Positions 227 through 45,120 of a stretch of 64,000 nt of DNA are shown here, in pieces. Numbering within the stretch: position 1 is the stretch's first letter; each line of letters starts with the position of its first letter. The DNA lies in assembly GCA_963765765.1 (NCBI GenBank), contig CAVXYC010000007.1, forward strand, positions 1 through 64,000. The letters run 5' to 3'. The notes below the pieces were generated by a model. The model ran no database searches. It saw only the letters and a program-made list of their open reading frames with translations, and was not told the DNA's origin. The stretch comes from an uncultured Chloroflexia bacterium (lineage in GTDB: Bacteria > Chloroflexota > UBA6077 > JACCZL01). A program made the translations under genes and the position numbers.

Positions 227-252
227 GTTCCGATAATGGCCGTTATCGGAAC
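227..252. repeat. dif-like site
   Basis: GTTCCGATAA-TGGCCG-TTATCGGAAC. Confidence 0.85.
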
Positions 253-270
253 ATCGACCGCCCCGGGTGA

Positions 271-1294
271 CTACTGGATGACTTCGGTTGCTTGCAGGAG
301 GACCGACTGCGGGATGGTCAGCCCCAGGGCCTGCGCTGTTTTGAGATTGATGATGAAGTCAAAATCCGTGGGCCGCTCCATCGGCAGGTCGCCGGGTCGG
401 GCACCTCGCAGGATTTTGTCCACGTACGGTGCTGCACTCCGGTAGATCGCGGCTCGACTCGAGCCATATGTCAGCAAGCCTCCCGCCCGAGCGAACTCCG
501 GAACTTCCGCGATCGACGGCAGCCGATACTGGAGCGCTAACTCGGCGATGCGTTCCACGCAGAGTCGAACCTGGCGTTGCGGAGAATATTGAGGGCATCA
601 GCGCCGGCTGTGGACATGGCCGCGAACGCGTCGTCGAGGCCGCTGATGTTCGGCATGGCGACCACGTGAAGGTGTACCCCGGGCCGGGCGCGGCCTCCTG
701 GAGCGCCCGCACGCGTCGCACATCCGAAGCCGAAGGGTTCTCTGCGCTGCCTGGACGGAGCACGGCTACACGGGAGGCGTGCGGGACCGCTTCCTTCAAT
801 AGTTGCAGCTGCTTGCCTACCAGTTGCGGCCCGCTTATGCCGGCCGTCCCCGTGATGTTCCCGCCGGGCCGCGCGATGTTGTCGACGAGCCCGATCTCGA
901 TTGCATCCTCGCTGACCAGGATCGCCACGAGCGGGACGGTGGCGGTCACCTGCTTGGCGGCGAGGATCCCGTCGACGACGCCACTACAATCAGCTCGACC
1001 TTCTGCTGGACGAGCTCGGTCGCGAGCGCCCGATACCGTTCGGTGTCTCCTCGGTCCAGCGGGACTCCACGGCGAGGTTCGGCCCTCCACCCAGCCCAGC
1101 TCCCGCATTCCATCCAAGAACGCGTTCCAACGCCCGCCAGGCGCGTCGCCGAGGACCCCGATCAGGCGCACCCGCTCGGACGTTGGGGCCTGGGGAGGGA
1201 GCAGTCCGCAGCCGGCCAGCAGACCGAGGCTGGCCACGGACAGGCCAGCCCTCAGGAATCGGCGACGGGTGCTCGATGGTTCGAGTGGCGTCAT
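271..1294 (-). CDS. Orphan ABC transporter substrate-binding protein (ABC_sub_bind / Trp-Tyr type), frameshifted
   Basis: Tat/lipoprotein-like leader RRRFLR...LLAGC, motifs NIARPGGNITG and YVDKILRGARPGDLPMERPTDF; split across frames. Confidence 0.85.
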
Positions 1295-1412
1295 GATGGC
1301 GCTAGTGTACGCCCGCGTGGTGCTACAAGGCAGTGACGGTGTCGTCAGCAAGGACCAAAGATGTGAAACCGAGTCTGGGCTGCCCTTCTTTCGCTGAGTC
1401 CTAGGCAGGCAC

Positions 1413-1436
1413 GGGCCGACAATGGGTTATCGGCCC
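1413..1436. repeat. dif-like site (variant, short spacer)
   Basis: GGGCCGACAA-TGGG-TTATCGGCCC; flanking DNA is homologous to the site at 35901. Confidence 0.7.
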
Positions 1437-1629
1437 GTGCGCTTCCCAAGAGGCGCGCGTCCTCATGCATCTGATGCGCGCCGGCCCGCCCACGAGGTTG
1501 GCGATGGGCCCTCGTCGTCAAGGACGGGCGATCCGGCACCAATTCGGTACGATTCCGAGCGCCGACTCTGTCCCGAGGACGTTTCGACAGGCTCGGGGAT
1601 TCTGAAGCGGCAGGTCGTTAAGATCGCGC

Positions 1630-1652
1630 TGACCGCCAATACTCACGGGAAC
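1630..1652 (+). promoter_or_regulatory. Repeated promoter/leader motif
   Basis: TGACCGCCAATACTCACGGGAAC, identical to 2633-2655. Confidence 0.6.
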
Positions 1653-1678
1653 CCGATCTCAGTGCGGGGAGCACCGGC

Positions 1679-2635
1679 ATGACCGAGTATCTCTTCGACA
1701 ACGCGGCGCCCGAGGTGGCCCGGCGAATTGACGCCCTGGCCTCGCTCTACGACCCGATCACCGCGCGGCATCTCGAGGCGCGCGGTGTGGCCGATGGCTG
1801 GCACTGCCTGGAAGTCGGGGGCGGCTCCGGCTCGGTGGCCGCCTGGCTCGCCCGGCGGGTGGGGCCGACCGCAGGGTCGTCGTCACGGACATCGACCCGC
1901 GGCATCTGGAGGCGCTGCAGGGGCGGCCTCGCGAACGTCGAAGTGCAGCGCCACGATGTCACCGCGGACTCGCTGGAGGACGGCGCCTTCGACCTGGTGC
2001 ACGCGCGGCTCGTCCTTGGACACGTGCCGGCCCGGCGCGAGGCGCTCGGCCGGATGGCCGCGGCGCTGCCGGCCGGGCGGGTGGCTGGTGGCCGAGGATT
2101 TCGACCTGCGCTTCGCCGACCCGACCTGGGCCACCGAGGCCGGGCGTTCGCCGCGCTCTATGCGAAGATGCAGGACGCGCTGATCCGACTCCTGGAATCG
2201 CGCGGCGCGGACCCCGAGTGGGGTCGCCAGCTCCCGGCGGCCCTGCGCACCGTGGGAATGTGGGACGTCGGGGCGGAGGGGCGCATCGCGCTCGCGCCGG
2301 GCAGGTCGCCCTCGGCCGGGCTCTATCGGGCGAATATCGAGCAGGTCCGGGCGGAGGCGGTGCGGGCGGGACTCATCGCCGACGAGGAGGTGGACGAGCT
2401 GCTCGACGGCCTGGACGATTCGAACATCGCAGGGAGCACCCGTGTGATGATCAGCGCGTGGGGCCGACGACCGCCCGGCGGGACACGGTGGCGGCGGATG
2501 CTGCACCCCCGGTGCTGGTATGCGAGTACGGGAACCGCGAAGGATCGTCTGATAAGGCGGATTATCGGAAGTTCCAACTCTTGGAGGTCTGCTAGGAGGA
2601 GCCGCGGCGGCTGCATGTTGACAGTCCTGCGATGA
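1679..2635 (+). CDS. Class I SAM-dependent methyltransferase, frameshifted (homology probably ends near 2480)
   Basis: CLEVGGGSGS motif I, FDLVHARLVL and C-terminal MISAWGRRP. Confidence 0.8.
   Translation: MTEYLFDNAAPEVARRIDALASLYDPITARHLEARGVADGWHCLEVGGGSGSVAAWLARRVGPTAGSSSRTSTRGIWRRCRGGLANVEVQRHDVTADSLEDGAFDLVHARLVLGHVPARREALGRMAAALPAGRVAGGRGFRPALRRPDLGHRGRAFAALYAKMQDALIRLLESRGADPEWGRQLPAALRTVGMWDVGAEGRIALAPGRSPSAGLYRANIEQVRAEAVRAGLIADEEVDELLDGLDDSNIAGSTRVMISAWGRRPPGGTRWRRMLHPRCWYASTGTAKDRLIRRIIGSSNSWRSARRSRGGCMLTVLR
2546..2571. repeat. dif-like site
   Basis: CGTCTGATAA-GGCGGA-TTATCGGAAG. Confidence 0.7.
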
Positions 2636-2676: not shown

Positions 2677-2793
2677 ATGGCCACCTTTGTCCTCGTCCAT
2701 GGCTCGTTTGGTGGCGGCTGGTGCTGGAAAAAGCTCGTGCCGCAGCTTCGCAATGCGGGGCACGAGGTGTACGCTCCCACGCTCAGTGGCCTG
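2677..2793 (+). pseudogene. Alpha/beta hydrolase (esterase) N-terminal fragment
   Basis: MATFVLVHGSFGGGWCWKKL...YAPTLSG, truncated after about 39 aa. Confidence 0.8.
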
Positions 2794-2796
2794 CTC

Positions 2797-2902
2797 CAGA
2801 GAGCAGAATCGGGCATCGTCAGTCCGATCGCCTGAGCTGTTCTAAGATTGATGGTGAAATCGAATGTACTGTGCTGCTCAACAGGAAGGTCCGCAGGCGT
2901 AG
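2797..2902 (-). pseudogene. C-terminal remnant of an ABC substrate-binding protein
   Basis: PADLPVEQHSTFDFTINLRTAQAIGLTMP matches the SBP C-terminus. Confidence 0.75.
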
Positions 2903-2906
2903 CACA

Positions 2907-3923
2907 ATGTCTCAGCTCCAAGACGTACGCAGGCGAGATTTCCTGAGAGTCAGTCTGGCCGCGGCGACTGGCTTGCTGGCTGGCTGCGGGCTGGTATCAC
3001 CACTCTCCTCGCCGCGCCAGCCGGCGAGAGTCCATCGCTTGGGCTGGCTGTCCGGCGGCGGGGCGGACACGAATACGCCATCGCTCGAAGCCTTCCGACT
3101 GGGGATGCGCGACCAGGGCTACGTCGAGGGCCGCGACTTCACCCTGGAGACGCGCTGGGCCATGGGGCAGCTCGTTCGCCTTCCCGAGCTGGCCGCCGAG
3201 CTCGTGGGCATGCCCGTCGACGTGATCGTGACCGCCGGGGCCGGCCCTATCCGCGCCGCGATGCGTGCAACCACTAGCATCCCCATCGTGATGGCAGAGA
3301 CGAACGACCCGGTGGAGGACGGCTTGGTGGCCAGTCTCGCACGGCCGGGAGGGAACGTCACCGGGCAGACCAGCATTGCCCGCGAGCTGATCGGGAAGCG
3401 ACTGGAAGTCCTGCGAAGGACACTCCCGTCCGCGTCACGAGTGGGCGTTTTCTGGAACCCCGAAGCCAACCAGGCCGGCCAGTTGCAGATAGCGGAGGCC
3501 GCGGCCGGCCCCCTGGGGCTGACGCTGGTGCCGCTGGAGGTGCGTGAGCCCACCGCCATCGAGGGCGCGTTCCAGCGGGCGGTGCAGGAGCGGGTGGATG
3601 CGCTGACCCTGGTAGACAATCTCGTGCTCTCGAGCAATGTGGCGCGTGTGGGCGGGCGGGCGCTTGCGCACCGGTTGCCGATGGTGTCGACCGTCCAATT
3701 TGTTGAGGCCGGCGGACTGATCGCCTACGGGGCGAGCTTTGAGGAGCTGTTCCGCCGCTCGGCGTCGTACGTGGACAGGATCCTGAAGGGCGCCAATCCG
3801 GGCGATCTGCCCGTGGAGCGGCCGGAGAAATTTGACCTGGTGATCAATCTCACCACCGCACAGGTGCTGGGCCTAACAATTCCTCAGTCGGTCCTTGCCG
3901 AGGCGACGGAGATCATCCAGTAA
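2907..3923 (+). CDS. Orphan ABC transporter substrate-binding protein (ABC_sub_bind type)
   Basis: RRRDFL leader, LLAGC, SLARPGGNVTG and YVDRILKGANPGDLPVERP. Confidence 0.9.
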   Translation: MSQLQDVRRRDFLRVSLAAATGLLAGCGLVSPLSSPRQPARVHRLGWLSGGGADTNTPSLEAFRLGMRDQGYVEGRDFTLETRWAMGQLVRLPELAAELVGMPVDVIVTAGAGPIRAAMRATTSIPIVMAETNDPVEDGLVASLARPGGNVTGQTSIARELIGKRLEVLRRTLPSASRVGVFWNPEANQAGQLQIAEAAAGPLGLTLVPLEVREPTAIEGAFQRAVQERVDALTLVDNLVLSSNVARVGGRALAHRLPMVSTVQFVEAGGLIAYGASFEELFRRSASYVDRILKGANPGDLPVERPEKFDLVINLTTAQVLGLTIPQSVLAEATEIIQ

Positions 3924-3975: not shown

Positions 3976-4001
3976 GTTCCGATAATGGGGGTTACCGGAA
4001 C
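3976..4001. repeat. dif-like site
   Basis: GTTCCGATAA-TGGGGG-TTACCGGAAC. Confidence 0.85.
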
Positions 4002-4041: not shown

Positions 4042-4902
4042 TTATTGCTCCACCCAGCCGAGAGCCGTCACGCCGAATCCAGCCAGAAAGGCGTCCGGGT
4101 GGTTCCCCCAAGCCTGAACTTCCGCTGCAAGGAGGTCCATCCTGTCCCGATCAGCCCAGCCCTGAGTGGTCACGAGCTCGATGAACGCGGGCGTCGTGAT
4201 CTGCTCAACAAACCAGGCCGCGAAGTCGTGGGTGTGCTCGTCGGTCCCGTACACGCCGATGCACCCGAGACTGGCCCCTGCGACCGGACGCGCAAACCCG
4301 GCTTCGCGGAGAAGTCGGCGGTGGTGCCGTGGGCGGTACGGATCTCCCCCGTGGTGTTCCACGGCGCGGCGAAAAATGCGCTCGACCTCTACAAGGCGCG
4401 GTGTGCTCGGCTCCCACAGCCACGTTCCCATGTCGTCGTCGGCAATGCCGACTACCCCGCCAGGGCGAAGTACCCGACGCATCTCCTGAACCGCCCGTGA
4501 CGGATTAGCAAGGTGCACAAGCAAGTTGTGGGCGAAGACGGCGTCCATGCTCCCGTCAGGGAAAGGAAGCTCGTATACCGAGCCGCGCTCGAGTCGCAGA
4601 TTCGAAATGCCCTGACGCGCCGCCAATGCTCCAGCGCGCTCGAGCTGTTCAGCCTGCAGGTCCAGTCCGATCACCTCACCCGGAGCAACCAGCGTCGCCA
4701 GTCCGACCGTGATGGAGCCGGGGCCGCAGCCGCAATCGAGCAGGCGCATGCCAGGGCTGAGATGTGGGGCCAGGAAGCCCGCGGAGGTTTCGGCAGTGCG
4801 GCGCTCGAGCCGTCGCTGTTCGGCGGCGGTGGTCGAGTGCACATACCGAAGCTTGCGCCCGTCGGGCGAACCTTCGTCCGATATGGACTTTGATCGGCTC
4901 AT
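4042..4902 (-). CDS. UbiE-like SAM-dependent methyltransferase
   Basis: LLDCGCGPGSIT, LPFPDGSMDAV and RRVLRPGG. Confidence 0.9.
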   Translation of the reverse strand: MSRSKSISDEGSPDGRKLRYVHSTTAAEQRRLERRTAETSAGFLAPHLSPGMRLLDCGCGPGSITVGLATLVAPGEVIGLDLQAEQLERAGALAARQGISNLRLERGSVYELPFPDGSMDAVFAHNLLVHLANPSRAVQEMRRVLRPGGVVGIADDDMGTWLWEPSTPRLVEVERIFRRAVEHHGGDPYRPRHHRRLLREAGFARPVAGASLGCIGVYGTDEHTHDFAAWFVEQITTPAFIELVTTQGWADRDRMDLLAAEVQAWGNHPDAFLAGFGVTALGWVEQ

Positions 4903-5016
4903 TGCACCCTCCCCCAATCACCATCGCTGGGTCACTCGGATGGACCCCAGCATAGCTCACGGGCGATCGCAAGGGTCAACTTCACCAAATGGTCGTCCAT
5001 CGTGGTCGGCCGGGCC

Positions 5017-5043
5017 CTTCCGATAATCTGGAGGTATCGGAAC
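5017..5043. repeat. dif-like site (7-bp spacer)
   Basis: CTTCCGATAA-TCTGGAG-GTATCGGAAC. Confidence 0.7.
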
Positions 5044-5084: not shown

Positions 5085-5113
5085 TTGACAGGCCAGTGCT
5101 GATCGCCAATACT
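5085..5113 (+). promoter_or_regulatory. Orphan copy of the TTGACA-N17-AATACT promoter
   Basis: TTGACA-GGCCAGTGCTGATCGCC-AATACT with no downstream + strand gene. Confidence 0.5.
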
Positions 5114-5189
5114 CTCGGAGACCGGCGGCGCCGCGGTAAATGACGATTGCCGAACGGACAGCATGACGAGCGATTGCCGCGGCTACGAG

Positions 5190-21662: not shown

Positions 21663-21687
21663 TAAGCGATGCCGAGCAGTTCAGCCA

Positions 21688-33865: not shown

Positions 33866-35676
33866 ACGCTCCACGCGGCATGCAGTGGCGCATTGCCCTG
33901 AGCTATGTCACGCTGCTGGCGGTGGTCATGCTGGTGCTGGGCGCGTATCTCGTCCGATTTCTGCGCGAGCAGGAGTTCCGAAACCTCGAGGCGCAGCTCA
34001 CCCGGGAAGCCCAGGTCGTCGCCGCGGACGCGGTCTATCGCCTGGCAATGGGCGGCCCTGAGGCGCTCGATCCTTTCGCCAAGCAAATTGGGGACGTGAC
34101 CGAGCTGCGCGTCACGCTCATCGCACTTGACGGCCGGGTGCTCGGTGACTCCGATGTAGACCCCGCGCTGACCGAAAACCACGCGAGTCGGCCAGAATTC
34201 GTCGACGCGCTCCGGACAGGCCTCGGCGAAACGCAGCGTCACAGCGCCACGGTTGATCGCGACTTGCTGTATTTGGCTGTGCCCATGCGGGACGGAGATC
34301 GCTTGATGGGCGTGGCTCGCGTGGCACTGCCCAGCGTCATGCTTGAGGCGTCCATCAATCGCGTGGTGGTTGCCGTTGCCGCTGCCCTCTTTGCCGCGGC
34401 GTTGCTCGCCGTGGCGCTCGCTATGATCATCGCGCGAGCCATTGCGTTGCCGATTCAAGCTCTGACCGCCTCGGCCCATCGCCTCGCCCAGGGACTTCCC
34501 CACCGGCCATTGCCGGTTCACGCCGGTGGAGAGGTTGGTGAGCTAGCGGCAACCTTTAACGACATGGCTGAACGCGTTCGCGACAACGTGCGATCGATCG
34601 AGCAGCAGCGGGCTCAGCTGGCAGCCGTGCTGGCCAACATTCCGGATGGCGTCGTCATGCTGGATGACGAAGGCACGATCATGCTCATGAACTCAGCGGC
34701 CAAGCGCCTCCTTCACGTGAGTGGAAAGACGGTGGATGGACATACGCTCATTGAAATAACTCGTGACCATGAGCTGTCTGATCTCGGACTCAGCGCCATT
34801 CGACTCCATGCTCCCACCCGGCCGACACTTATTGAGCACGGGTCCGGTGAAGCTCGTCGCTCAATTCAGGCCGTCGGTGCACCGCTGCCCTCCGAGGCGT
34901 CGCCCAGTGCCGCCGCGCTGGTCGTCCTGCAGGACGTCACCGAGCTGCGACGCACCGAGATGATGCGGCGCGATTTCGTTGCGAACGTCTCGCATGAGCT
35001 CAGAACGCCCGTCGCCTCCGTCAAGGCCATGGTAGAAACGCTGGAAGAAGGTGCCCTCGCGGACCCTGGCGCCGCTCGCGATTTCCTGGCCCGTATCCAC
35101 GTGGAAGTGGATGACCTGACGCGATTGATCGAGGAGCTGCTCGAGCTGAGCCGCATTGAATCGGGCCGCGTTCAACTTTCCCGCGAGCCGCACGATCTTC
35201 GAAACACCGTTCGATCGGCTCTCCAGCGCCTTCAGGCACCCGCTGAACGACAGGGCGTGACCTTGACTCAGTCTGATCATGCCCAGCCGGCAATTGCTCT
35301 CATTGACGATGAACGAATTCAGCAGGTGTTGATGAACCTGATTCACAACGCGATCAAGGTGACCGAGCCCGGTGGCACAGTAAACGTCTCGATCATGGCT
35401 ACCGAGAATCGGGTCCAGGTCATCATTCGTGATAACGGCATAGGTATCGACCGGCAGGATCTCGGTCGGCTCTTTGAGCGGTTTTACAAAGTGGACAAAT
35501 CCCGCTCCAGCGGTGGGACAGGCCTAGGTCTGGCCATCGCGAAGCATCTCACACAAGCACACGGTGGACGCATCTGGGCCGAGTCCGCGGGACGCGGCCA
35601 GGGAGCTACGTTCACAGTGGAGCTTCCAGCGATGCGCTTGGCCCCTGCCAGGCGGAAGGCGGCCGCGGCATCGTAG
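33862..35676 (+). CDS. phoR: PhoR-like sensor histidine kinase
   Basis: ENHASRPE cache, HAMP, PAS, FVANVSHELRTP, FERFYKVD and GTGLGL. Confidence 0.85.
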   Translation: MNAPRGMQWRIALSYVTLLAVVMLVLGAYLVRFLREQEFRNLEAQLTREAQVVAADAVYRLAMGGPEALDPFAKQIGDVTELRVTLIALDGRVLGDSDVDPALTENHASRPEFVDALRTGLGETQRHSATVDRDLLYLAVPMRDGDRLMGVARVALPSVMLEASINRVVVAVAAALFAAALLAVALAMIIARAIALPIQALTASAHRLAQGLPHRPLPVHAGGEVGELAATFNDMAERVRDNVRSIEQQRAQLAAVLANIPDGVVMLDDEGTIMLMNSAAKRLLHVSGKTVDGHTLIEITRDHELSDLGLSAIRLHAPTRPTLIEHGSGEARRSIQAVGAPLPSEASPSAAALVVLQDVTELRRTEMMRRDFVANVSHELRTPVASVKAMVETLEEGALADPGAARDFLARIHVEVDDLTRLIEELLELSRIESGRVQLSREPHDLRNTVRSALQRLQAPAERQGVTLTQSDHAQPAIALIDDERIQQVLMNLIHNAIKVTEPGGTVNVSIMATENRVQVIIRDNGIGIDRQDLGRLFERFYKVDKSRSSGGTGLGLAIAKHLTQAHGGRIWAESAGRGQGATFTVELPAMRLAPARRKAAAAS

Positions 35677-35900
35677 CATCGCCCTTAGCGTAGATTCGGG
35701 GACGACCCCACCTCAGCCCTCCCGCGCGGCAGGGAGGAGCCGGATTCTCCGTTTTCTAAGACACGAGAGGGCTCGGTTTCGCCGAGTCCTCCTCTGGATC
35801 TCGAATTCAGTGCATCGACACCAGCTTCTCGAACGCCGCCCTAACGTACTATCCGCCACGACCCCTGGGAGCGCTGTCCGGCCGCACGCTTCCGCGCCAA

Positions 35901-35926
35901 GTTCCGATAACCCCCATTATCGGCAC
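35901..35926. repeat. dif-like site
   Basis: GTTCCGATAA-CCCCCA-TTATCGGCAC. Confidence 0.85.
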
Positions 35927-36022
35927 CGGTGCCTGCCTAGGGGCTCAGCGAAAGACTGGGCAGATTGCTCGAGCGAGCTCACTCTGCGTTGTGGCACCAC
36001 GCGGGCGTACACTAGCGCCATC

Positions 36023-37047
36023 ATGATGCCACTCGGTCCGCCGGCACCCGTCGCCGCTTCCTGAGGGGTGGCCTGTCCGTGGCCGGCCTCGGTCTGCTGG
36101 CCGGCTGCGGGCTGCTCCCTCCCCAGGCCCCAACCTCCGAGCGGGTGCGCCTGATCGGGGTCCTCGGCGACGTGCCTGGCGGGCGTTGGGACGCGTTCTG
36201 GGATGGACTGCGGGAGCTGGGCTGGGTCGAGGGCCGGAACCTCGCCGTGGAGTCCCGCTGGGCCGAGGAGGAGACACCCAACGGTATCGGGCCCTCGCGA
36301 CCGAGCTCGTCGAGCGGAAGGTCGAGCTGATTGTAGTAGGGGCCTCGGTGGTGGCGGTCGCCGCCAAGCAGGCGACCGCCACCGTCCCACTCGTGGCGAT
36401 CCTGGTTAGCGGGGAGGCAATCGAGAGCGGGCTCGTCGACAACATCGCGCGGCCCGGCGGGAACATCACTGGGATTGCCGGCATAAGCGGGTCGCAACTG
36501 GAAGGCAAGCAGCTGCAACTCTTGAAGGAAGCGGTCCCGCACGCCTCCCGTGTAGCCGTGCTCCGCGGGCAATCCCGAGCCTTCTTCGAGCTCAGAGCGC
36601 CGCGTGCGGGCGCTCCAGGAGGCCGCGCCCGGCCTCGGGGTACACCTTCACGTCGTCGCCGCGCCGAACATCAGCGGCCTCGACGACGCGTTCGCGGCCA
36701 TGTCCACAGCCGGCGCTGATGCCCTCAAGATTCTCAACCACACCCAGTTCGGGACTGCGTTGGGACGCATCGCCGAGTTAGCGCGCCAGTATCGGCTGCC
36801 GGCTATCAGCGAATATCCGGACTTCGCTCGGGCGGGAGGCTTGCTGGCCTATGGCTTGAGTCGAGCCGAGATCTACCGGAGTGCAGCACCGTACGTGGAC
36901 AAAATCCTGCGAGGTGCCCGCCCTGGCGACCTGCCGATGGAGCGGCCGACGGACTTCGAGTTCGTGATTAACGTCGGGACAGCGCAGGCCCTCGGTCTGA
37001 CGATTCCTCAGCCGCTCCTTGCTGAAGCGACCGAGCTGATCCAGTGA
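36023..37047 (+). CDS. Orphan ABC substrate-binding protein, frameshifted; close paralogue of 271-1294
   Basis: Shares GLLAGCGLLPPQAPTSERVRLIGVLGD and YVDKILRGARPGDLPMERPTDF. Confidence 0.85.
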
Positions 37048-37153
37048 CCTCGTTCCAGTCCGGACTAACCGAGATCATCCATGAGGCGCATGCCTGATCC
37101 GCGCCGAAGCGGGCGGTATGGGCGTCGGGAAATGAGCTATCCACGCATCATTC

Positions 37154-37179
37154 GTTCCGATAACCCCCATTACCAGAAC
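37154..37179. repeat. dif-like site
   Basis: GTTCCGATAA-CCCCCA-TTACCAGAAC; possible degenerate second copy at 37185-37210. Confidence 0.8.
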
Positions 37180-37233
37180 CGCCGGATCCTGTAGCCCCTA
37201 TTACGAGACCAACTTGGCTGCAGCCCGTCATAG

Positions 37234-37872
37234 CTAAACGCGACAAAGCAGGGTCAACGACGCCAGAAGCAATTTGACTCGGCCCTGGATGTCATCTCGG
37301 ATCTCGCGTACCTGCTCGATTGGCAATCCTTCGGGATCGGCAATCTCCCAATCTTCGTAGCGCTTGAACGGGTACACCGGGCAGGCATCGCCGCACCCCA
37401 TCGTGACGATCACGTCGGCCACCTGGACGACTTCGTCCACCAATGGCTTCGGAAACTCGCGCGACAGGTCGAGCCCTACTTCAGACATAGCGCGGACCAC
37501 CACGGCATCGAGCTCCTCGGCGGGGGTGCTGCCAGCAGAATGCACACCCACGACTCCGTTGCTTAGATCGCGCAGAAAGGCCGCGGCCATCTGGGACCTA
37601 CCGGCGTTGCGGCTGCAGATGAACAGCACGTCGGCGCTTTCTTTCTCAAGAGGCTTCGCAAGACTTACGAGCGCTTTCAGCCGTTCGCGCGTGAAGCGGT
37701 AGACGAACATAGGGACGTAGTTCACGATCCGAACTTGTCCCAGGCATCTCTGGGACTCATAAGCACATTGTTCGATGGTCTCTTCCGAGAATGTCCCTCG
37801 AAATTCGTATGACAACCGCTCAATCTCCGCCTGGATCGCACGCTCGAGATGGAATTGGAACGGCTCGTTCAT
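37234..37872 (-). CDS. arsC: Arsenate reductase (LMW-PTP fold) with an N-terminal helical extension
   Basis: FICSRNAGRSQMA, TMGCGDACP and DPEG. Confidence 0.9.
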   Translation of the reverse strand: MNEPFQFHLERAIQAEIERLSYEFRGTFSEETIEQCAYESQRCLGQVRIVNYVPMFVYRFTRERLKALVSLAKPLEKESADVLFICSRNAGRSQMAAAFLRDLSNGVVGVHSAGSTPAEELDAVVVRAMSEVGLDLSREFPKPLVDEVVQVADVIVTMGCGDACPVYPFKRYEDWEIADPEGLPIEQVREIRDDIQGRVKLLLASLTLLCRV

Positions 37873-37926
37873 CGTTCCGTCCTCCCGCCGAGACACTTCG
37901 GCAAGCAGCCCTTCACTCCCATGGCA

Positions 37927-38351
37927 TCACTCCGACCCCAGAAACTCATCCGTGATCCGCTGGCGGATGGCATCGCGAACAGCGCGGTACATCTGCATCT
38001 GCTCCGCTTCGTTTCCCGTCGCTTTTGACGGATCCGGAAAGCTCCAGTGCAGTCGTCGCTTGGCGCCGAAAAACACGGGCAGGCCTCGTTGGCCTGATCG
38101 CACACCGTGATTACCGCGTCGAATGGCTGGTCGAGATAGCGGTCGAGTGTCTTGCTCTCCTGAGCGCTGATGTCGATATCCAGCTCGCCCATGGCCTTGA
38201 TGGCCAGCGGTCGCACGCGCGTGGCTTCCGTCCCCGCGGAATACACGTCAAACTGCTCCCCGCCGAGTCCTCGCAGGAGCCCCTCGGCCATCTGGGAGCG
38301 CGCCGAATTGTGGGTGCAGAGAAAGAGCACACGCTGTTTGGTACTCATCAT
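37927..38351 (-). CDS. arsC: Thioredoxin-type arsenate reductase, frameshift near 38080
   Basis: [26 protein letters not shown] and HWSFPDP in the second frame. Confidence 0.88.
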
Positions 38352-38383
38352 GGCTCACCTCCGTTCGTGACTCTGAACCGCGC

Positions 38384-39241
38384 CTATGCTGCGCGGATTG
38401 CATTGAGCTCATCGGTTCCTCCATTGCCTCGTCCGCCGTATGCGGCAGGAGCGATCTGATTCCGTACTGGTAGAGAGCTGCCCCCGCTACGGCCCCTAGA
38501 CATGGGCCCACAAGGTAGATCCAGAACCCGCCGCGGGGGCCAGGAATCGCGATGCTGCCAAATCCCACGGCCCAGGCGACCAGCCGGGGGCCAAGATCGC
38601 GGGCTGGATTCCATCCCGCCTGGGTGATGGGCGCAAAGAGGCAGATCAACAACGCCACTGTGAAGCCGATGAAGAACGGCACCATGCCCTCCGGCGTGAC
38701 GCGGTTCTTTGGATCCGTAAGGGCGAAGATCACCAACACCAGAATCGCCGTTCCGAATGCTTCCACAAGCATCGCCTCGAGCGGCGATGTCAACGCCTGG
38801 GCGTCGAGGCCCGTGCCGAAGATTGCTGGATTCGGGAAGTACTGGCCAAAGATCATCGCCGCGCGCTCGCTGCCTGGCGCTCCGCGGGTGAGCCCCTCCT
38901 TGGCCTCGAAACGCGCAAGGATACGGCCCCCAGACAACGAAAACAACCAGTCCGGCGGCGATGGCGCCCACGAACTGCGCGAGCCAGTACGGAAGCATCC
39001 GTCGGGCCGGGAAATCATCGCGACGGAATAGCGCAACTGCCAGCGTCACCGCCGGATTCAAATGAGCGCCCGAAAGCGTGGCTGAGCAATAGATCGCCAG
39101 GGACACGCCAAAGCCCCAGACAACGGCCACCTGCCACAACCCCTGGAGCGCTCCCGTGAGCACGGCCGTGGCCACGGAGCCGATCCCGAACAAAACCATC
39201 AGAAAGGTGCCCAGGCACTCGCCTGTCAGCGCGGCTCGCAT
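38384..39241 (-). CDS. MIP-family aquaglyceroporin (GlpF/AqpS-like arsenite channel), frameshifted
   Basis: SGAHLNPAVT and NPARDLGPR motifs; lies between arsR and arsC. Confidence 0.88.
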   Translation of the reverse strand: MRAALTGECLGTFLMVLFGIGSVATAVLTGALQGLWQVAVVWGFGVSLAIYCSATLSGAHLNPAVTLAVALFRRDDFPARRMLPYWLAQFVGAIAAGLVVFVVWGPYPCAFRGQGGAHPRSARQRARGDDLWPVLPESSNLRHGPRRPGVDIAARGDACGSIRNGDSGVGDLRPYGSKEPRHAGGHGAVLHRLHSGVVDLPLCAHHPGGMESSPRSWPPAGRLGRGIWQHRDSWPPRRVLDLPCGPMSRGRSGGSSLPVRNQIAPAAYGGRGNGGTDELNAIRAA

Positions 39242-39311
39242 AGCACCGACGCATCAATGGGTGTTGATATATGAGCCCGAAGAAAGCGGATGGCACTCAT
39301 TTGGTCTATAC

Positions 39312-39676
39312 CTACGAACAACCCGCCGGCCCGCACTCGGCCGTGCGGTCGCCAATCGTGGCTGGATCGAACAGCCCGGTCAGCTCCTGGTGGATCAGGG
39401 CGAGCCGGTCAGCGTCAACGCGGTAATAGATCCAGCGCTGATCCACTGGATCCCGTCGTCCTTGCACCAGGCCGGCATTGCGGAATTGGCGCAGGTGGTG
39501 GCTTATCAGATTCTGCGGCAGCTCGAGCTGTTCGGCCAGTTCACAGTTGCAGATTTCACCCGCCATAAGCGCGAGGAAAATACGGCGCCGCGTCGGATCG
39601 CTGATCAGCCGCAAGAACTCTGCGGAGGTCGGCGAAGCATCCGGCCGCTGGGTAGTGAGACGGGTAATTCAACCAT
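39312..39676 (-). CDS. arsR: ArsR/SmtB family regulator
   Basis: SDPTRRRI, EICNCEL, QNLISHHL and WIYY; N-terminal frameshift. Confidence 0.85.
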
Positions 39677-39736
39677 TATTGATATTGTGCGCCGAATCAC
39701 AGCTAGAGTGCAAATCACCTGACCTTGACCGCTCTT

Positions 39737-39756
39737 ATATAGACATTCATCGATAT
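39737..39756. promoter_or_regulatory. Candidate ArsR operator
   Basis: Imperfect palindrome ATATAGACATTCATCGATAT upstream of arsR. Confidence 0.55.
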
Positions 39757-39797
39757 TATCCCCTTGAAGGCGGTATAATTTGACCAACAGGGACGCA

Positions 39798-40592
39798 TCA
39801 GCTACGCCATGCGACCTCTCTGATGACGTCTTCTACGCATCGGAGTTGTTCACGCAAACAATCGGGGACCGGCTCGTTCGGGGCAAGTCCCTCGCTGAAG
39901 GCTACGCCCAGCGTCACTATGGGCTTCATATCCACTTGGCCCCTGCTACCGAACTGAAACAGCAGTTCTGGTGTATTCAGCTTGAGCGGTCCTCCGGGAT
40001 GGACATACTCCCAGTCCGGGAGGATGGCGGCTCCATCGTGGCCGACAGCGAGGTTTTCAAGATCGATGACCGCCAGATTCAGATTCTTGTGCTTGTCGTC
40101 GATGTCCATCGAGTGAAGCTGGGCGAGTCGTTCTCGGCTGGGCAGGAAAGCATCCGCATCGGAAAACTCTTGATACGGCTGCAAGCTCTCGATGAATGCT
40201 TGTACGGCATCGGGAAGCAAGCGGACCGCGTACTTGCCGCATGTTCGTTGCAGGGCACCCTTCTTGTCCCGTTTCTCCCAATTACCTTTGTGGGACAGGA
40301 TTGGAAACGCTGTCCACTCGGGGGCAGATTCCCGCCTGCTCGAAATTTCGTAGACGATGTGATCCAGAGCGGATCGCATGTTGTGGACGGCATCGCCGGC
40401 GGCCAGAGCGATGTGATCGGGCAGTTCCTCCGAGAGCTTGATCCACACGCGCAATTTCCCCGGCTCACTCTCGGTATCCGGGATGATTTGGCAGGGTTCT
40501 CCTTGGATGAACTCGGTGGCTGCGGTTACCGCGTCCGTGAAGTGCTTGTATGCCCGATTGACCTTGAGTCGCCACGAAGGTACGGTGCTCAT
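39798..40592 (-). CDS. Hypothetical protein, possibly HEPN-like
   Basis: LKVNRAYKH, GDAVHNMRSALDHIVY, IESLQPY and DIDDKHK motifs. Confidence 0.7.
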   Translation of the reverse strand: MSTVPSWRLKVNRAYKHFTDAVTAATEFIQGEPCQIIPDTESEPGKLRVWIKLSEELPDHIALAAGDAVHNMRSALDHIVYEISSRRESAPEWTAFPILSHKGNWEKRDKKGALQRTCGKYAVRLLPDAVQAFIESLQPYQEFSDADAFLPSRERLAQLHSMDIDDKHKNLNLAVIDLENLAVGHDGAAILPDWEYVHPGGPLKLNTPELLFQFGSRGQVDMKPIVTLGVAFSEGLAPNEPVPDCLREQLRCVEDVIREVAWRS

Positions 40593-40633
40593 GCTTTGAT
40601 GTGTCTCGCATCGTGAACGGGGTGGAGTTTGCG

Positions 40634-40863
40634 ATGTCCCAGCAAGTCATAGTGTATTCACAACCGGGTTGAATGTTCTGTAACAAGGTGAAAGAGTTTC
40701 TTCCCAACGAGGCGTGAATTACGTTGAACGAAACGTCGCGGAAGATGAGCAGGCGCTGGAAGAGCTGACGGCGCTTGGCTATATGACGACTCCGGTGGTG
40801 AAAAATCGACGACCACTTAGTGATCGGCTTCGATCGTGCTCGTCTCGAGGAATTGCTCGCTAA
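40634..40863 (+). CDS. Glutaredoxin/NrdH-like protein with in-frame UGA (probable selenoprotein, UxxC)
   Basis: MSQQVIVYSQPG-TGA-MFCNKVKEFL...YMTTPVV.IDDHLVIGFDRARLEELL; two homopolymer indels; absent from the ORF track. Confidence 0.8.
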
Positions 40864-40986
40864 GAGGGCTTCCCTCGCTTTCTGTGGCGGTCGCGGTCGT
40901 GGTCGCGACAGATCGTAGTCTCCAAAACGGAAGCATCTAATTTCTCTGTCATCCAACTATCCGCGCCTGTCGAATACTTACTGTCC

Positions 40987-41194
40987 GCGCCGCCGTACGC
41001 GGCATACACTCGTCCGAAGTCGGGTCGGACTGGAATGTCGGGATGACTCCGTAGGCGACCAGTACCATGGCCCCTATAAGCCCAAAAGGCCATGGGCGTC
41101 CTTCCCGCAACCACTGCCACACCAGCCAGCCGCCGCCGATTTCCGCGAGGCCCGCCAGCGCGAAGAGCGCCAGGGCGCGGGCAATGTCAGGCAT
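40987..41194 (-). pseudogene. ynfA: YnfA/UPF0060 membrane protein, 3'-truncated
   Basis: [19 protein letters not shown]...[10 protein letters not shown], then homology is lost. Confidence 0.75.
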
Positions 41195-41592
41195 GGTGGC
41201 CGAGCTGCTGCATGCGGTCCCAGGTGTCTTCCAGGCTCCAAACCTCTGATAAGCGCCCGTCCAGCACGCGGAAGATGAAGATTTCGTGCACTCGCTCCAT
41301 GCGCTTGCCCGTCGCAGGCTGGCCGATGAATGGTCCCCGCCTGGGTCCCCGAGCATGTGCAATGGGCCACGACCCGATCGCCTTCCACGATGAGTTCGAC
41401 GATGTCCTGACGCCAATCTGGAAACGCTTGAAGGAATTCGGTAAACGCGTCTCTGAAACGGTCTGCAAGCGCCGGCGCGCATAGTTCCTCGAGCACTTCG
41501 AATCGTCGCTCGTTCATTGCCTCCTGAACCAAGCGGCGGACAAGGGCCTTATTTGACTCGGTTTCCAACATCTCTCGCTCAGGAGTGTTCAT
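41187..41592 (-). CDS. SnoaL-like ester cyclase, frameshifted
   Basis: NKALVRR, AFPDW, EGDRVV and PATGK. Confidence 0.85.
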
Positions 41593-41624
41593 GCGCCTAT
41601 TGTTGCCTATAGCTACTGTGGTTC

Positions 41625-41650
41625 GTTCCGATAACCCCCATTATCGCAAC
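41625..41650. repeat. dif-like site
   Basis: GTTCCGATAA-CCCCCA-TTATCGCAAC. Confidence 0.85.
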
Positions 41651-41795
41651 GTGTCGAGCGTGGGCGAGAGCTCGGCGTTCTTGCCTTGAGACCGTGAGCC
41701 AGATGAGCGGCGAGAGAGCCCACCCACGAGGCGCCTTGTTGGCGCGAAGTGGAGGGCCCTTCGTCGAGCTCGGTGGGGCTCGGGCGCGGTCGAGA

Positions 41796-42740
41796 TCAGG
41801 CCGAGAGGGCCTGGGCGGCGCTGCGGATCTTTCCGGGCCATCCCGCGTGATCTCTTCCACGAGCTTGACCACCTGCGGATGCTCCAGACCCGAGACCAGG
41901 AAGGTCCAGCGCCAAGCGTGCAGCGTCTTGGCGCTGATCTCCTGACGCTCGGACTCGGTGAACCCGCGCCCGGTCGCTGCCTTGTAGCGCGTCGATATTC
42001 AGGGCGATCTGCTGCTGCAGCAAGCCATCGATGGCACCACCCAGCTCGAGCACCTCGTCGATCGCTGCCTCGCGCTGCGCCAGCGGCATGTCCTCGACCA
42101 TCTCGGCGATGAGCATCGTGTCGATCTTGGCGTGCTGCGCCTCGTCCAGCCAGTGATGCCGCAGCAGGTCGCGGAACAGATCGTCGAGGTCGGTCTTGTT
42201 CCGGACATGCTCCGTGTAGTGGACCTGCACGAACCACTCGATGATGTTGATCAGGAGCAGCACCGCGAGGTCGGACTTGCTCCGGACCACCTCCGCGACC
42301 GCTTCGCGCCCGGGGATCAGCCCTGGGGTGGCGCCGAACTGCTCGGTGAACAGGTCGATCGAGCGACGGAACATCTCCTGGTGCTTCAGCTCCTCCTCCG
42401 AAAAGCGCAGGAGTGAGCGCTGTCGCACCTCGTCGCCGTAGGGATTCTGCAGAACTTCTTCGGTGACGGTAGGAACGATGAACTCCTCCACGAAGGCAAA
42501 GAGGTGGCAGTACGCGTTGCCCATGATCTGGTTCAGCATGCGCTTCTCATCGTCGTCGAGGCAGGCGATCGCGTCAACACCGCTGAGGCGGTCGGGCAAA
42601 AAGCGCTTCGAGAGATCGAAACGCCGACCGTTGAGGACCTCGTCTTCCTGCCAGGCAACCTTCTTCGAATTCTCGAGCACGTTCCCAAACGTGTAGTTGT
42701 GGGTGACCATCGGGGTCGGTGCCAGTGTGGTGGTTGTCAT
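41796..42740 (-). CDS. Ferritin-like diiron protein (AurF-like), frameshift near 41985
   Basis: VEEFI, EELKHQ, IEW and HWLDEAQHA ExxH ligands. Confidence 0.75.
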   Translation of the reverse strand: MTTTTLAPTPMVTHNYTFGNVLENSKKVAWQEDEVLNGRRFDLSKRFLPDRLSGVDAIACLDDDEKRMLNQIMGNAYCHLFAFVEEFIVPTVTEEVLQNPYGDEVRQRSLLRFSEEELKHQEMFRRSIDLFTEQFGATPGLIPGREAVAEVVRSKSDLAVLLLINIIEWFVQVHYTEHVRNKTDLDDLFRDLLRHHWLDEAQHAKIDTMLIAEMVEDMPLAQREAAIDEVLELGGAIDGLLQQQIALNIDALQGSDRARVHRVRASGDQRQDAARLALDLPGLGSGASAGGQARGRDHAGWPGKIRSAAQALSA

Positions 42741-43532
42741 GATGTGGATGTCCTTCCCTCGGGCCCGCGGCGCGGGACCGGAATGCGCTCGGTGGTCGTC
42801 ATGCCCTGTGCGATCGAATCGACGGCCGTGGTCGCCGATGAGTGGAGCCTCGCGGCGGGCGTCCAGGCCGTCGCGATGATTTCCTCCGGGATGAAGATCG
42901 GACGGTCCTGCCGGTCGCTCTCTTCGGTGGCGGCTCAACCGTTCGTCACCGTCACTCTAGGGAGCGTCCGTCTCTTACTCGTCCCCCGGCGCGTCCCCTA
43001 CCGTGTCCTTTGCGAGGAATTTCGAAATTGGTCTGGAATTCCTTGGTGAGGACCTTGACATCAAGTGGTTGCCATAGGGCCTGCTCCTTTCTGGCCAGTG
43101 GCCGGTCGCACGAGGTAGAGCCCGCCTTCCGGATTGGCGGCTGGTCGCGTACCTGACCGTGCGGCGCGCCCCGCGGTTCGGTTTTCCACGAGCCAACCCA
43201 GGGAACTCGCGTCCCCGGGGATTCCCTCCACGCGCGGCAAGCCAAGCAACTCCGTGGTCATGTCCGGGCGATCATCCGTCTCGTCGTCGGGCTCGCCCTG
43301 GTAGACGAACGGGACCCGCGATGGACGCAAAGGCGGCGCATGGCACACCGGAACGGCCATCTGGCCCGCGCGCTTCGACGCCGGCCCGCCACATCGGGCG
43401 CGGTTGGTGCGGCGCGGTCTCTCGGCGAGGCCCGAATCGACCGGCCGATGTGGCCCGAACGCGGCGACGAGCGTGCATCCATTTCGGGTCGGCGTCGTCT
43501 ACAGGAGCGAATCCGACCGAAAAGGAGCCACC

Positions 43533-44154
43533 ATGACCACACCGACGACCAGCCAGCCGACCAGAGAGTTGCAGATCGACTTCTTGTTCCTCGATCTCGA
43601 CACCTGCACCCGCTGCCGAGCCACCGATGCGACGTTGCTCGAGGCAATCGAGCGTACCCGCCCCGCTCTCGAGGCCGCCGGTGTGGTGGCCCGCGTGACC
43701 AAGACCCTCGTCTCGAACGAGGCGGCGGCACACGAGCTCGGATTCGTCAGCTCGCCCACGATCCGGTCGATGGCGTCGACATCGCCGACGAGCTGGTCGA
43801 GAGCGCCTGCGACACGTGCAGCGAGGCCTGTGGCTGTCCCGGTGGTGTCGACTCCAGGGACTGGGTCTACCGAGGCGAGCGGAGCACCGAGCCGCCGCTG
43901 GGTCTCATCGTCGAAGCGATCATGCGCCGAGCGCTCGGCGCCGACCCCGCCGGCTAACACACACCAGAGCCGGGACCCCGCCACGTGCCGACGAACCTCC
44001 GCCGGCTATTTCGCGGCTGCGGCGGCTGCCACACCGGCATCCGACTGTTGCCCACCGGGACGTCCAAGCCGACTGCTGCATGCCCGAGGACAAGGCCGCC
44101 TGTTGTGGCAGCGGGGCGGGGTCGTCATCCTGCGGCTGCGGCGCTGGGCACTGA
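43533..44154 (+). CDS. DUF2703-like thioredoxin-fold protein with a Cys-rich tail, frameshifted
   Basis: IDFLFLDLDTCTRC, GFVSSPTIR and tail DCC...ACCGSG..SSCGC. Confidence 0.75.
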
Positions 44155-44160
44155 AGTATC

Positions 44161-44826
44161 ATGAGTGCCATGATGGCCGCCCCCACGGAGCTGACTGATG
44201 CGCGCAACGAGGCGCTGCAGGCTATGCGCGCGCGACTGCGCGCATTCATTGAGCGCAGGGTCGGGGATCCCGATGTCGCCGAGGATCTCACGCAGGACGT
44301 GTTACTCCGCCTGCTGATGAACGACGACCGCCAGATCGAGAACCCCACAGCATGGCTCTACCGAGTCGCGCGAAATGCGATCATCGACCACTACCGCACT
44401 CGCCGCGACTGGCGTCCGCTTGAGGCCGATGCCCCGACCCCGCCGAGCCTGGCCGAGGACCCGTTTGCCGACGACTCGCAAGAGGCCAACGCGAGCTCGC
44501 GGGATGTCTGCGCTCGCTCGTGGACCAACTCGCCGAGCCCTACCGATCGGCGTTGATCGACGCTGACCTCACCGGACAGACCCAGGCCGAAGCCGCCCGA
44601 TCGGCGGGTGTGAGCGTCTCCGGGATGAAATCGCGGGTGCAACGTGGTCGCCGCTCGCTGCGCCAGCTCCTCACCGAGTGCTGCCGCGTGTACACCGGGC
44701 CCGCGGGCGGAATCAGGGGCTACGAACCGGCGCCGGCTGTGGAGAGTCGCCGCAGGGCGGGGGCGGCGTCCCGGGCCACTGCGGATGCGCGGGCACACCG
44801 CCGTGAGCCGAGGGAGCGCCGGCTAG
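44161..44826 (+). CDS. ECF RNA polymerase sigma factor (SigZ-like), frameshift near 44490
   Basis: AEDLTQDV, WLYRVARNAIIDHYR and SVSGMKSRVQRGR..L..LL..CC. Confidence 0.85.
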
Positions 44827-45094
44827 GCCTTCCGGGGTCGAGCACGCCCGAGCGGCGGGATCGTCGGCGAGGCGTTCATCGAGCGCCGGGCGCACCGCCT
44901 GGGATCAAGTCGCGCCGGGGGCGGCTCGATTTGGAACGACTGGCAGCTTGCACCTTCCCAGCGTCGCGCGGTCAACGTGAGCTGCATCCGGAAGGCCATT
45001 CGCTCCTAGGCACCCGGCGTCGATCCGGACTGAGCATCAGGGCCATCGGGCGTGACCGCAACGCCCATCGACCCACCAGAGACTTTTGAAACAG

Positions 45095-45120
45095 GGTCCG
45101 ATAATCCCCATTCTCGGAAC
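45095..45120. repeat. dif-like site
   Basis: GGTCCGATAA-TCCCCA-TTCTCGGAAC. Confidence 0.8.

Follow-up and report, generated by a model that had tools for sequence, protein, structure and literature searches.

Two site-partitioned islands in a Chloroflexia contig

The first 64 kb of contig C7 (GenBank CAVXYC010000007.1) from an uncultured, soil-type Chloroflexia bacterium, referred to below as the window, hold two gene islands that are partitioned by copies of a 26-bp element, (TC)GTTCCGATAA-YCCCCA-TTATCGGAAC(GA), in which two inverted arms enclose a short spacer. Here, we describe these sites, their arrays across the genome and the compound structures at the array ends, and argue that they are probably recombination core sites bounding mobile gene modules, a reading drawn from the sequence pattern. 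The source assembly comprises 6.49 Mb in 33 contigs (completeness 92%, contamination 6.9%), the contigs running from 39 to 893 kb, and the evidence is wholly computational, coming from this one error-prone, metagenome-type assembly and one informative foreign contig. Labels beginning with C denote contigs of this assembly, G000 this genome, G001 a sister species and L excerpts of contigs, among them public metagenome contigs; SBP stands for substrate-binding protein. The features of the window, with their strands, are as follows.

1–123 (−): leader, the conserved blocks downstream of a composite site, cut off by the contig end
124–129 (−): TTGACA hexamer, 21 bp past the second half-site pair, pointing away from the array to the contig start
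152–190 (−): second half-site pair of the composite, GGTTCCAGATAA-N14-GGTTATCGGAACC, 36 bp past the core site
227–252 (−): core site with perfect arms and minus-strand spacer CGGCCA; last site of island 1 and first element of the composite
271–1351 (−): SBP cassette gene (ABC_sub_bind), broken frame, 85–94% identical to about eight paralogous cassettes on other contigs
1413–1436 (−): degenerate 24-bp relic, GGGCCGATAA-CCCA-TTGTCGGCCC (4-bp spacer), then a conserved 55-bp right-flank block
1679–2635 (+): methyltransferase cassette gene; the open frame continues into the site region and is probably broken
2546–2571 (−): variant site with four mismatches, spacer TCCGCC and right arm TTATCAGACG; this class recurs at C23:455253 and in L015
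2618–2646 (+): promoter-like TTGACA-17-AATACT at a distance of 47 bp from site 2546, facing into the cassette that follows
2721–3923 (+): open frame whose C-terminal 274 residues are an SBP (ABC_sub_bind, by Pfam); its N-terminal portion is the putative hydrolase fragment of the first-pass annotation
3976–4001 (−): core site with one mismatch, minus-strand spacer CCCCCA
4042–4917 (−): methyltransferase cassette gene (by Pfam)
5017–5043 (−): site with a 7-bp spacer and two mismatches; first site of island 1, at the backbone border
5085–5113 (+): second promoter-like TTGACA-17-AATACT module, 42 bp from site 5017
35901–35926 (+): core site with right-arm variant GGCAC; first site of island 2, followed by the 55-bp flank block and an SBP gene
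36000–37047 (+): SBP cassette gene, broken frame, 88–93% identical to paralogous cassettes
37154–37179 (+): core site, followed by a weak second site-like relic at 37184–37210
37234–41482 (−): multi-gene module with a low-molecular-weight phosphatase/ArsC-like gene, a MIP channel, a YnfA-like gene and frames without a family
41625–41650 (+): core site with one mismatch
41796–45089 (mixed strands): multi-gene module with an AurF-like gene (−), DUF2703 (+) and a sigma-70 region 4 fragment (+)
45095–45120 (+): core site; last site of island 2 and first element of the composite
45159–45196 (+): second half-site pair of the composite
45219–45345 (+): TTGACA hexamer with the conserved blocks behind it, directed into the PhoX gene (45513–47520)
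45513–46400 and 46339–47520: PhoX alkaline phosphatase gene in two overlapping frames

A search of the window for GTTCCGATAA-N6-TTATCGGAAC with up to three mismatches returned six sites (227, 3976, 35901, 37154, 41625 and 45095) with zero to two mismatches each, against a mean of 0.01 in 100 shuffles, none of which reached six. The first-pass annotation of this DNA had named nine copies; the other three (1413, 2546 and 5017) are real yet degenerate, and its failure to see any by eye in about 40 kb of backbone is borne out, the pattern having no further match there within the window. A looser search for the 14-base core added only two matches (4878 and 11342), which is the chance level (1.54 expected). 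The spacer orientation is likewise as first described, the four sites of island 2 reading CCCCCA or TCCCCA on the plus strand and the five of island 1, including 3976, on the minus strand, and Pfam supports the island 1 order of SBP, methyltransferase, SBP and methyltransferase. An arrangement of one gene per interval is true of island 1 only, the intervals 37154–41625 (4.5 kb) and 41625–45095 (3.5 kb) of island 2 being multi-gene; the genes of the module at 37234–41482 suggest the handling of arsenic or another metalloid, the whole set occupying a single interval bounded by two sites. Overlooked at first was the composite nature of the outermost site of each island, with its second half-site pair at 152–190 and 45159–45196.

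The G+C content of both islands is 3–6 points above that of the ~60% backbone. Many island genes (SBP, methyltransferase) and the adjacent PhoX gene are split over two frames, while the long backbone genes are intact; the frame breaks are either decay, leaving pseudogenes, or assembly indels in repeated DNA, and coding prediction by third-position G+C gave no discrimination between frames. The promoter-like TTGACA-17-AATACT module, at 2618–2660 and 5085–5120 and more weakly at 1613–1655, lies within a conserved word, GA.CGCCAATACTC.CGG.A.C, just inside cassettes.

Anatomy, arrays and mosaic flanks of the site

Two scans of the genome underlie the catalogue of sites. The first covered all contigs, with spacers of 4–8 bp and up to four mismatches, and at these loosest settings gave 45 matches against 9 in the block-shuffled control genome; limited to the 6-bp spacer and up to three mismatches, it gave 26 against none. 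The second, using the left arm plus spacer, gave 97 matches against 22 for the reversed pattern, gaining variants and half sites, and from both scans a catalogue of about 56 sites was curated by hand. The anatomy of the element was derived from the 34 sites that have a 6-bp spacer. ATAA and TTAT occupy positions 7–10 and 17–20 in 27–33 of these, and departures from consensus amount to 25 of 340 positions in the left arm and 58 of 340 in the right. The spacer is conserved like the arms, positions 12–16 showing the consensus in 28–32 of the 34 sites, with CCCCCA in 15, TCCCCA in three and single changes in most others; the spacers of 5 or 7 bp found elsewhere are mostly length variants of the C run (CCCCA, CCCCCCA) and may be homopolymer errors. 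Both arms are alike, as had been noted, and a search of the assembly for sites with a XerD-type arm found none.

Of the arm changes, 65 affect one side only and nine affect both, just four of these nine being complementary; pairing between the arms is therefore not under selection, and the missing covariation argues against an RNA or single-strand DNA hairpin, REP-type (repetitive extragenic palindromic) elements and attC-type sites. Judged by its sequence, the arm pattern fits two protein-binding half-sites on duplex DNA. None of the five island 1 sites was called as an intrinsic terminator; no T run follows them and the stem is A+T-rich at its inner end. The geometry is that of Xer/dif-type core sites, with inverted arms of about 11 bp, a central region and inner ATAA/TTAT, and so is the polarity, the central region being asymmetric and near-identical among sites and lying on the same strand in 29 of 29 pairs of neighbouring sites no more than 6 kb apart. 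These traits support a likeness to the oriented core sites on which tyrosine recombinases act, and speak against hairpins, terminators or chance matches. Variant arm classes recur, one with GTTCCTGTAA, one with spacer TCCGCC or CCCGCC and one with GTTCGCATAA, and sites of different class stand in tandems of two or three at C23:455221/455253, C23:456163/456194 and G001:C155. A hybrid site at C27:84750–84777 joins a standard left arm to a GTTCGCATAA-type right arm (GTTCCGATAA-CCCCCCTG-TTATGCGAAC).

The expectation that sites would group in islands genome-wide was borne out, 45 of the 56 lying within 14 arrays and 11 being solitary, with gaps between array sites mostly of 0.7–1.6 kb. Open frames of at least 200 codons span 12 of the 56 sites, against 1569 of 2000 random places, and many sites sit after stop codons or between convergent genes. 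The intervening modules measure 0.4–4.5 kb, the commonest being SBP cassettes of about 1.2 kb, with methyltransferases and the arsenic-type gene set among the others; each ends on one side in the right arm of a site and on the other in the left arm and spacer of the following one. Cassette genes occur in both orientations and several cassettes have promoter-like sites of their own. Several contigs break within or beside arrays (at the start of C7, at the start of C1 with a site at 3097, and at the end of C6 with an SBP gene at 38917–39029), so arrays may extend beyond what is seen, and the assembly is probably limited by the repeated SBP cassettes.

Half sites are found at C1:182022 (−), C10:138639 (+) and C32:217233 (+), where the left arm and CCCCC are kept and the right arm is replaced; two of these carry the same replacement, GAGCCTGTTGAAAA, as would be seen had both been joined, at the edge of the spacer, to one partner that is not a site. 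Another half site lies between the genes of a dehydrogenase/lactonase/carboxymuconolactone-decarboxylase cluster that is present, at 94–97% identity, at C4:~21000–26000, C5:~22700–27700 and C11:~69400–74400; we considered this threefold repeat as a mobile element and rejected it, the copies being probably strain variants or a recent duplication in the assembly.

The flanks of the sites form a mosaic. On the left, three classes recur, namely the 3' end of a co-directional SBP gene (about ten sites), the 250-bp upstream region of a reversed SBP gene (four sites at 84–90% identity and, in shorter form, three more) and a block ending ...ATCC.G.CATCATTC (three sites). Right-flank classes are the 55-bp block, present at seven sites and followed by the start or end of an SBP gene, and the composite, and left and right classes are combined across the site in many ways. 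The left arm GGTCC is found at five of the seven sites of the reversed-SBP class and at one site elsewhere, and the right arm GGCC(C/G) at five of the seven sites with the 55-bp block and three elsewhere. Arm variants thus go with their own flank while the opposite arm is free within a class, which places the joins between the arms. The SBP cassette of window 271–1315 is repeated from site to site, at 85–94% identity, in at least six arrays on six contigs. SBP paralogues without sites (for example C23:67740–68793) and AurF-like paralogues without sites are also present, so the site is not simply part of these genes.

A comparison between strains is provided by metagenome contig L015 (2431 bp), from a close relative, whose ends match C27:45650–45864 (92.6%) and C27:88419–89285 (91.7%). 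It keeps a homologue of site C27:45973 with an identical left arm and a different right arm and spacer, and homology ends at the site end; there follow a cassette of about 0.9 kb unmatched in this genome, a stretch of degenerate arms and, finally, the second piece of backbone. In G000 the same two pieces are separated by 42.4 kb, delimited by site 45973, the first of an array, and composite 88178, the last of an array. Synteny breakpoints had been expected to fall in the spacer; this one comparison favours that expectation, with the left break exactly at the site and the right one 70–140 bp past the composite.

Further public material consisted of 11 runs, all DNA from soil or rhizosphere metagenomes available as contigs, with a best share of 0.27. 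The contigs of four of them (X1, X2, X3 and X5) fit window 32001–50000 only in short pieces, mostly of 150–400 nt, among which no joint at 35901, 37154, 41625 or 45095 is listed; one X2 piece spans 35844–35997, across site 35901. These short contigs neither favour nor disfavour excision. The sister species G001 (650 contigs) is 73–79% identical, synteny being lost beyond window 35624, and its PhoX gene has no composite upstream. In metagenome contigs L016 and L021 a site stands between convergent genes, and the paralogue in G000 lacks it; contig L018 is a mosaic of insertion sequence-like pieces.

Composite array ends and candidate recombinases

At about a dozen places, a site forms part of a larger composite, which runs from the core site through 36–38 non-conserved bp to GGTTCCAGATAA-N14-GGTTATCGGAACC, then over 20–22 bp to TTGACA and on into conserved blocks over about 120 bp. 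Spacing that is kept while the intervening sequence varies is typical of protein-binding arrays. Full composites are found at C1:3097, C1:191289, C6:22653, C7:227, C7:45095, C10:48970, C23:469079 and C27:88178, and decayed ones at C6:36599, C15:607634 and C23:204639. A full composite is present in seven arrays of at least two sites and, read in the CCCCCA direction, stands last in each, its promoter-like hexamer facing away from the array; partial composites at C1:19789 and C27:48702 are not last. TTGACA stands 92 and 56 bp from the site in two variants. Another form, a variant composite whose arms are of the GTTCGCATAA type and whose own first site has spacer CGCTTC, comes after the last standard site at C30:95083 and C20:551909. 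By analogy, the composite may be an attI-like or cer-like end with accessory binding sites.

The blocks that follow TTGACA, the leader, are found in the window at 1–123 (−) and 45225–45345 (+), and also at C1:3225–3370, C1:191188–191010 (−), C6:22555–22400 (−), C6:36576–36450 (−) and C23:468700–468610 (−), with the conserved words ..TTACAGCGAAACGGTTACC.GGAATGGAAG.. and ..CCGGTTTATCACCGGGCAATATGCATCGGGATGAC. No Rfam family accounts for it: a search of 146 kb at gathering thresholds gave one tRNA, and one composite searched at E up to 10 gave nothing. Nor does it share a conserved fold, RNAalifold on six copies giving −2.4 kcal/mol and no convincing covariation; a strong fold in a single copy was discounted, being due to the long inverted repeat at C1:3350–3540, which an inverted copy of the leader's 3' block at C1:3498–3536 creates. 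With half-site-like words within it, the leader may represent further protein-binding sites rather than RNA. Its 3' block, ATCACCGGGCAATATGCATCGG..., also stands alone, away from composites, at window 13332–13350, C1:21240–21268 and C32:296879–296907, and some 300 bp past the blocks of the C6:22653 composite there is a tRNA gene (C6:22070–22143, L007:2971–3044).

The first-pass annotation saw no tyrosine recombinase in the window, in agreement with the 21 PF00589 matches of the genome, none of which is on C7. Only C29:40995–42026 is a strong housekeeping-type Xer, scoring 268 bits with the XerD model, which is below the model cut-off. A second Xer-like gene, C30:93979–94930 (XerC model, 1.5e-47 for the C-terminal frame), starts about 40 bp behind the variant composite at the C30 array end and reads away from the array, a topology that is the same as that of integron intI and attI. 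It is followed by a small Cys-rich frame of 95 residues, without a Pfam family and with a C-terminal C..H....W.C motif set (L001:5658–6089 (−), corresponding to C30:93657–94088). The small protein, with loci L038:1229–1516 and L036:4914–5231 besides that on L001, is found beside the Xer-like recombinase in G000 and G001, where the recombinase is 87% and the small protein 72% identical to those of C30, and directly behind a full composite in another genome of the order, G029 (41%, E 4e-29), whose recombinase homologue (69%) is truncated at the N-terminus and lies at a different place.

Homologues of the C30 enzyme at E ≤1e-30 occur in three of the 39 genomes of the order (G000, G001 and G029), all of which hold sites or composites. 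Sites with at most two mismatches are found within the order in G000, G007 and G029, the only three of 401 genomes in a sample of the phylum to have sites, and degenerate ones in G001. An unrelated tyrosine recombinase of 324 residues begins 38 bp after a site, twice, on metagenome contig L022 (620–1658 and 4552–5087), each copy consisting of site, TTGACA and recombinase, with antitoxin-like and transposase-like frames between them; both arms of the second site are altered symmetrically, C to T and G to A. At C1:184026–185158 and C20:548291–549479, phage-type integrases in broken frames stand 0.9–1.2 kb from sites. With integron integrase models, the C30 enzyme reaches 79.6 bits for TIGR02249 (cut-off 265) and others at most 93.8 bits, and a protein atlas search returned generic integrase clusters only. 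The favoured candidate enzyme, on account of its location and its joint occurrence with the sites, is the C30 Xer-like paralogue with its small Cys-rich neighbour, and the alternative is the XerD-like housekeeping gene on C29; symmetric arms would also suit a single XerD-like host enzyme.

A search of the assembly for a canonical dif pattern was negative, the relatives examined have no conserved single-copy counterpart of the site, and cumulative GC-skew extremes on contigs single out no site. A lone site at C14:35932–35961, with the same spacer and other arms, was tried as a conserved dif and rejected, none of 40 relatives having it. An exact scan of public metagenome contigs gave 11 loci, on contigs of 42–65% G+C; one, a perfect 26-bp site at L017:2974–2999 on a 42% G+C contig, lies beside OsmC-like and methyltransferase-like genes, and from this low-G+C copy the site occurs far outside the present lineage. 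In a collection of species-representative genomes, from which this genome's own records may be left out, there were only two chance-like partial matches, and none of the viral contigs searched holds the site.

Alternative explanations, known systems and meaning

The 26-bp element is most likely, on its sequence features, the core site of a Xer-family tyrosine recombinase. Two inverted binding arms of 10–12 bp would flank a 6-bp asymmetric crossover region that gives the site its polarity, and a cassette would consist of a right arm, one or more genes, and a left arm with spacer. Since the sites of an array are repeated in the same direction and their spacers hardly differ, an exchange between two of them would release the intervening DNA as a one-site circle able to insert at any other site, and this would account both for the reshuffling of flanks and for the presence of one SBP cassette in many arrays. 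The compound end site would carry accessory binding sites. Binding, strand exchange, excision and integration are here all inferred.

Several observations weigh against this reading. The pattern could partly reflect gene-family duplication with flanks, because about 22 of the 56 sites adjoin SBP paralogues. Some catalogued sites, especially those with four or more mismatches, may be false, given hand curation and nine shuffled matches to 45 real ones, and the assembly has numerous frame breaks in island genes and about 7% contamination. Evidence between strains is a single 2.4-kb metagenome contig whose right breakpoint is outside any spacer, and no circle junctions or alternative joints were seen in public runs that offer only short soil-metagenome contigs. 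The C30 recombinase is spread over two frames that overlap, a TAG interrupts its homologue in G001 and the N-terminus is missing from that in G029, so the candidate enzyme may be dead, or the assembly wrong; with its GTTCGCATAA-type arms and first spacer CGCTTC, the C30 composite may serve another class of site. About ten standard composites precede unrelated genes (PhoX, amidohydrolases), not a recombinase. Finally, TTGACA at a fixed 97–101 bp from the site in seven composites and the promoter-like sites 42–47 bp from sites 2546 and 5017 would fit a regulatory role.

It is on these promoter-like elements that the most serious rival builds, in which the sites bind a regulatory or architectural protein, as operators, upstream activating sites or insulators, and were copied with the SBP family and its promoters, the arrays arising by ordinary tandem duplication. 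Besides the fixed composite geometry and the frequent SBP neighbours, the site on L022 that abuts TTGACA just upstream of the recombinase gene would fit autoregulation. A fixed promoter position had been named beforehand as the mark of an operator, and it is found for the subset of seven composites but not for 43 of the 56 sites, outward TTGACA lying within 200 bp at only 13. Many sites follow stop codons or separate convergent genes, PhoX of G001 does without the composite and SBP paralogues such as that on C23 without sites; a dimeric regulator on a palindrome needs neither a spacer conserved like the arms nor uniform orientation, and it leaves the segregation of arm variants with their own flanks and the L015 breakpoint at a site unaccounted for. 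We therefore regard regulation as unlikely.

Lower still is the chance that the sites were left behind as attachment sites by ordinary integrative elements (prophages or islands with integrases of their own) that made repeated use of one host sequence, with no cassette system as such. The broken phage-type integrases near sites on C1 and C20, a terminase small-subunit-like frame after the C20 array and the transposase and antitoxin-like frames between the two recombinase copies of L022 are what such relics would leave, but most intervals, at about 1.2 kb with one metabolic or transport gene, are far too small, 11 of the 14 arrays have no integrase within the stretches examined and the viral contigs are free of the site. 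Least probable, and only by a little, is a selfish repeat of the REP/BIME (bacterial interspersed mosaic element) or MITE (miniature inverted-repeat transposable element) kind, or a hairpin formed in RNA or DNA, for instance a terminator, which a transposase would have spread and which would be tolerated between genes. A short, mostly intergenic palindrome restricted to three of the 401 sampled genomes would suit it, as would the three Y1-transposase genes of the genome and the conserved blocks flanking the palindrome, which resemble the mosaic motifs of BIMEs. Yet compensatory arm change is wanting (four complementary to 65 one-sided), the sites have no T tract behind them and none of the five in island 1 was called as a terminator, none of the three Y1_Tnp genes is at a site or array, copies are clustered at about 1.2-kb spacing in uniform orientation rather than scattered, and the same site in metagenome contigs of 42–65% G+C is unlike a young selfish repeat. 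The operator and REP-like readings are thus weaker than that of recombination sites.

Taking the sites as recombination sites, the nearest described system is the dif modules of Acinetobacter plasmids. These modules are bounded by pdif sites for XerC/XerD (PMC6449649, PMC13141974, PMC7399989, PMC12907356), and the sites of A. baumannii plasmids are said to "not allow excision", cointegrates forming instead (PMC11705084). Both systems have arm-6 bp-arm Xer-type sites with inner ATAA/TTAT that partition accessory DNA into recombined modules, most of which have no dedicated integrase beside them. The pdif sites alternate in orientation; those described here are direct, spacer-matched repeats (29 of 29), a geometry that would permit excision. 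They also differ in their identical arms without a XerD-type arm, in the composite array ends and the co-occurring Xer-like paralogue, and in location, the roughly 56 sites occupying at least 14 chromosomal arrays, rather than Rep_3 plasmids, in a lineage that is unrelated and uncultured.

Other Xer-related systems share single traits with the arrays. XerH/difH, XerS/difSL and archaeal XerA/dif are single-copy sites for chromosome-dimer resolution that are not known to bound cassettes; the near-palindromic sites of such single-recombinase systems have similar arms, and the present assembly has only one strong housekeeping-type Xer, on C29. A chromosomal dif is single-copy at the terminus with distinct XerC and XerD arms, and here there are about 56 copies with arms alike. 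Integrative mobile elements exploiting Xer (IMEX), which lack an integrase of their own, stack in tandem at a Xer site and leave repeated dif-like sites, at a single chromosomal dif; here there are at least 14 loci, no canonical dif and no conserved single-copy site in relatives. The plasmid sites cer and psi combine a core site with ~180 bp of accessory sequence and an internal promoter for the small RNA Rcd, and the composite resembles them in its core site, one-sided protein-binding-like motifs at fixed spacing, promoter-like hexamer and conserved blocks, but those downstream blocks have no conserved RNA fold or Rfam family.

Whether the system is integron-like, as the first-pass annotation supposed, depends on the level of comparison. 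As in integrons, mostly single-gene cassettes lie between recombination-type sites, the same cassette is found in many arrays and a special compound site with extra binding motifs marks one array end; the recombinase gene, however, stands behind a composite only at C30. Integron attC sites are hairpins of 57–141 bp folded from single strands, whereas the sites here are 26-bp duplex-type palindromes without hairpin covariation; cassette genes run in both orientations, several with promoter-like sites of their own, the promoter of the compound site faces away from the cassettes and the C30 recombinase falls far below the integron-integrase cut-off. The system is therefore integron-like in architecture, yet has neither the IntI-type integrase nor the folded attC sites that define integrons. 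We consider it a tentative possibility, less likely than the recombination-site reading on which it builds, that a second, integron-independent cassette-capture system is at work, with a dedicated Xer-derived recombinase, a small Cys-rich partner, an attI-like composite and 26-bp double-stranded sites. In such a system single genes with their own promoters would be excised, multiplied and re-inserted at many chromosomal arrays, and the expansion of the SBP family would be its visible product. A literature search, supplementary files excluded, found neither this site nor a chromosomal cassette array of direct-repeat Xer sites, and papers containing either arm 10-mer were, among the matches listed, unrelated by title.

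If the sites do recombine, integrons with their single-stranded attC chemistry would not be alone in forming gene-cassette arrays; a plain duplex site of the Xer type would suffice for building many arrays on a chromosome. The idea of dif modules would then reach from Acinetobacter plasmids to the chromosomes of an unrelated uncultured lineage, and the compact 26-bp site and its recombinase might form a pair of possible use as a tool. For soil bacteria, such a system would offer a way for the genes of transporter binding proteins to multiply rapidly and module by module.

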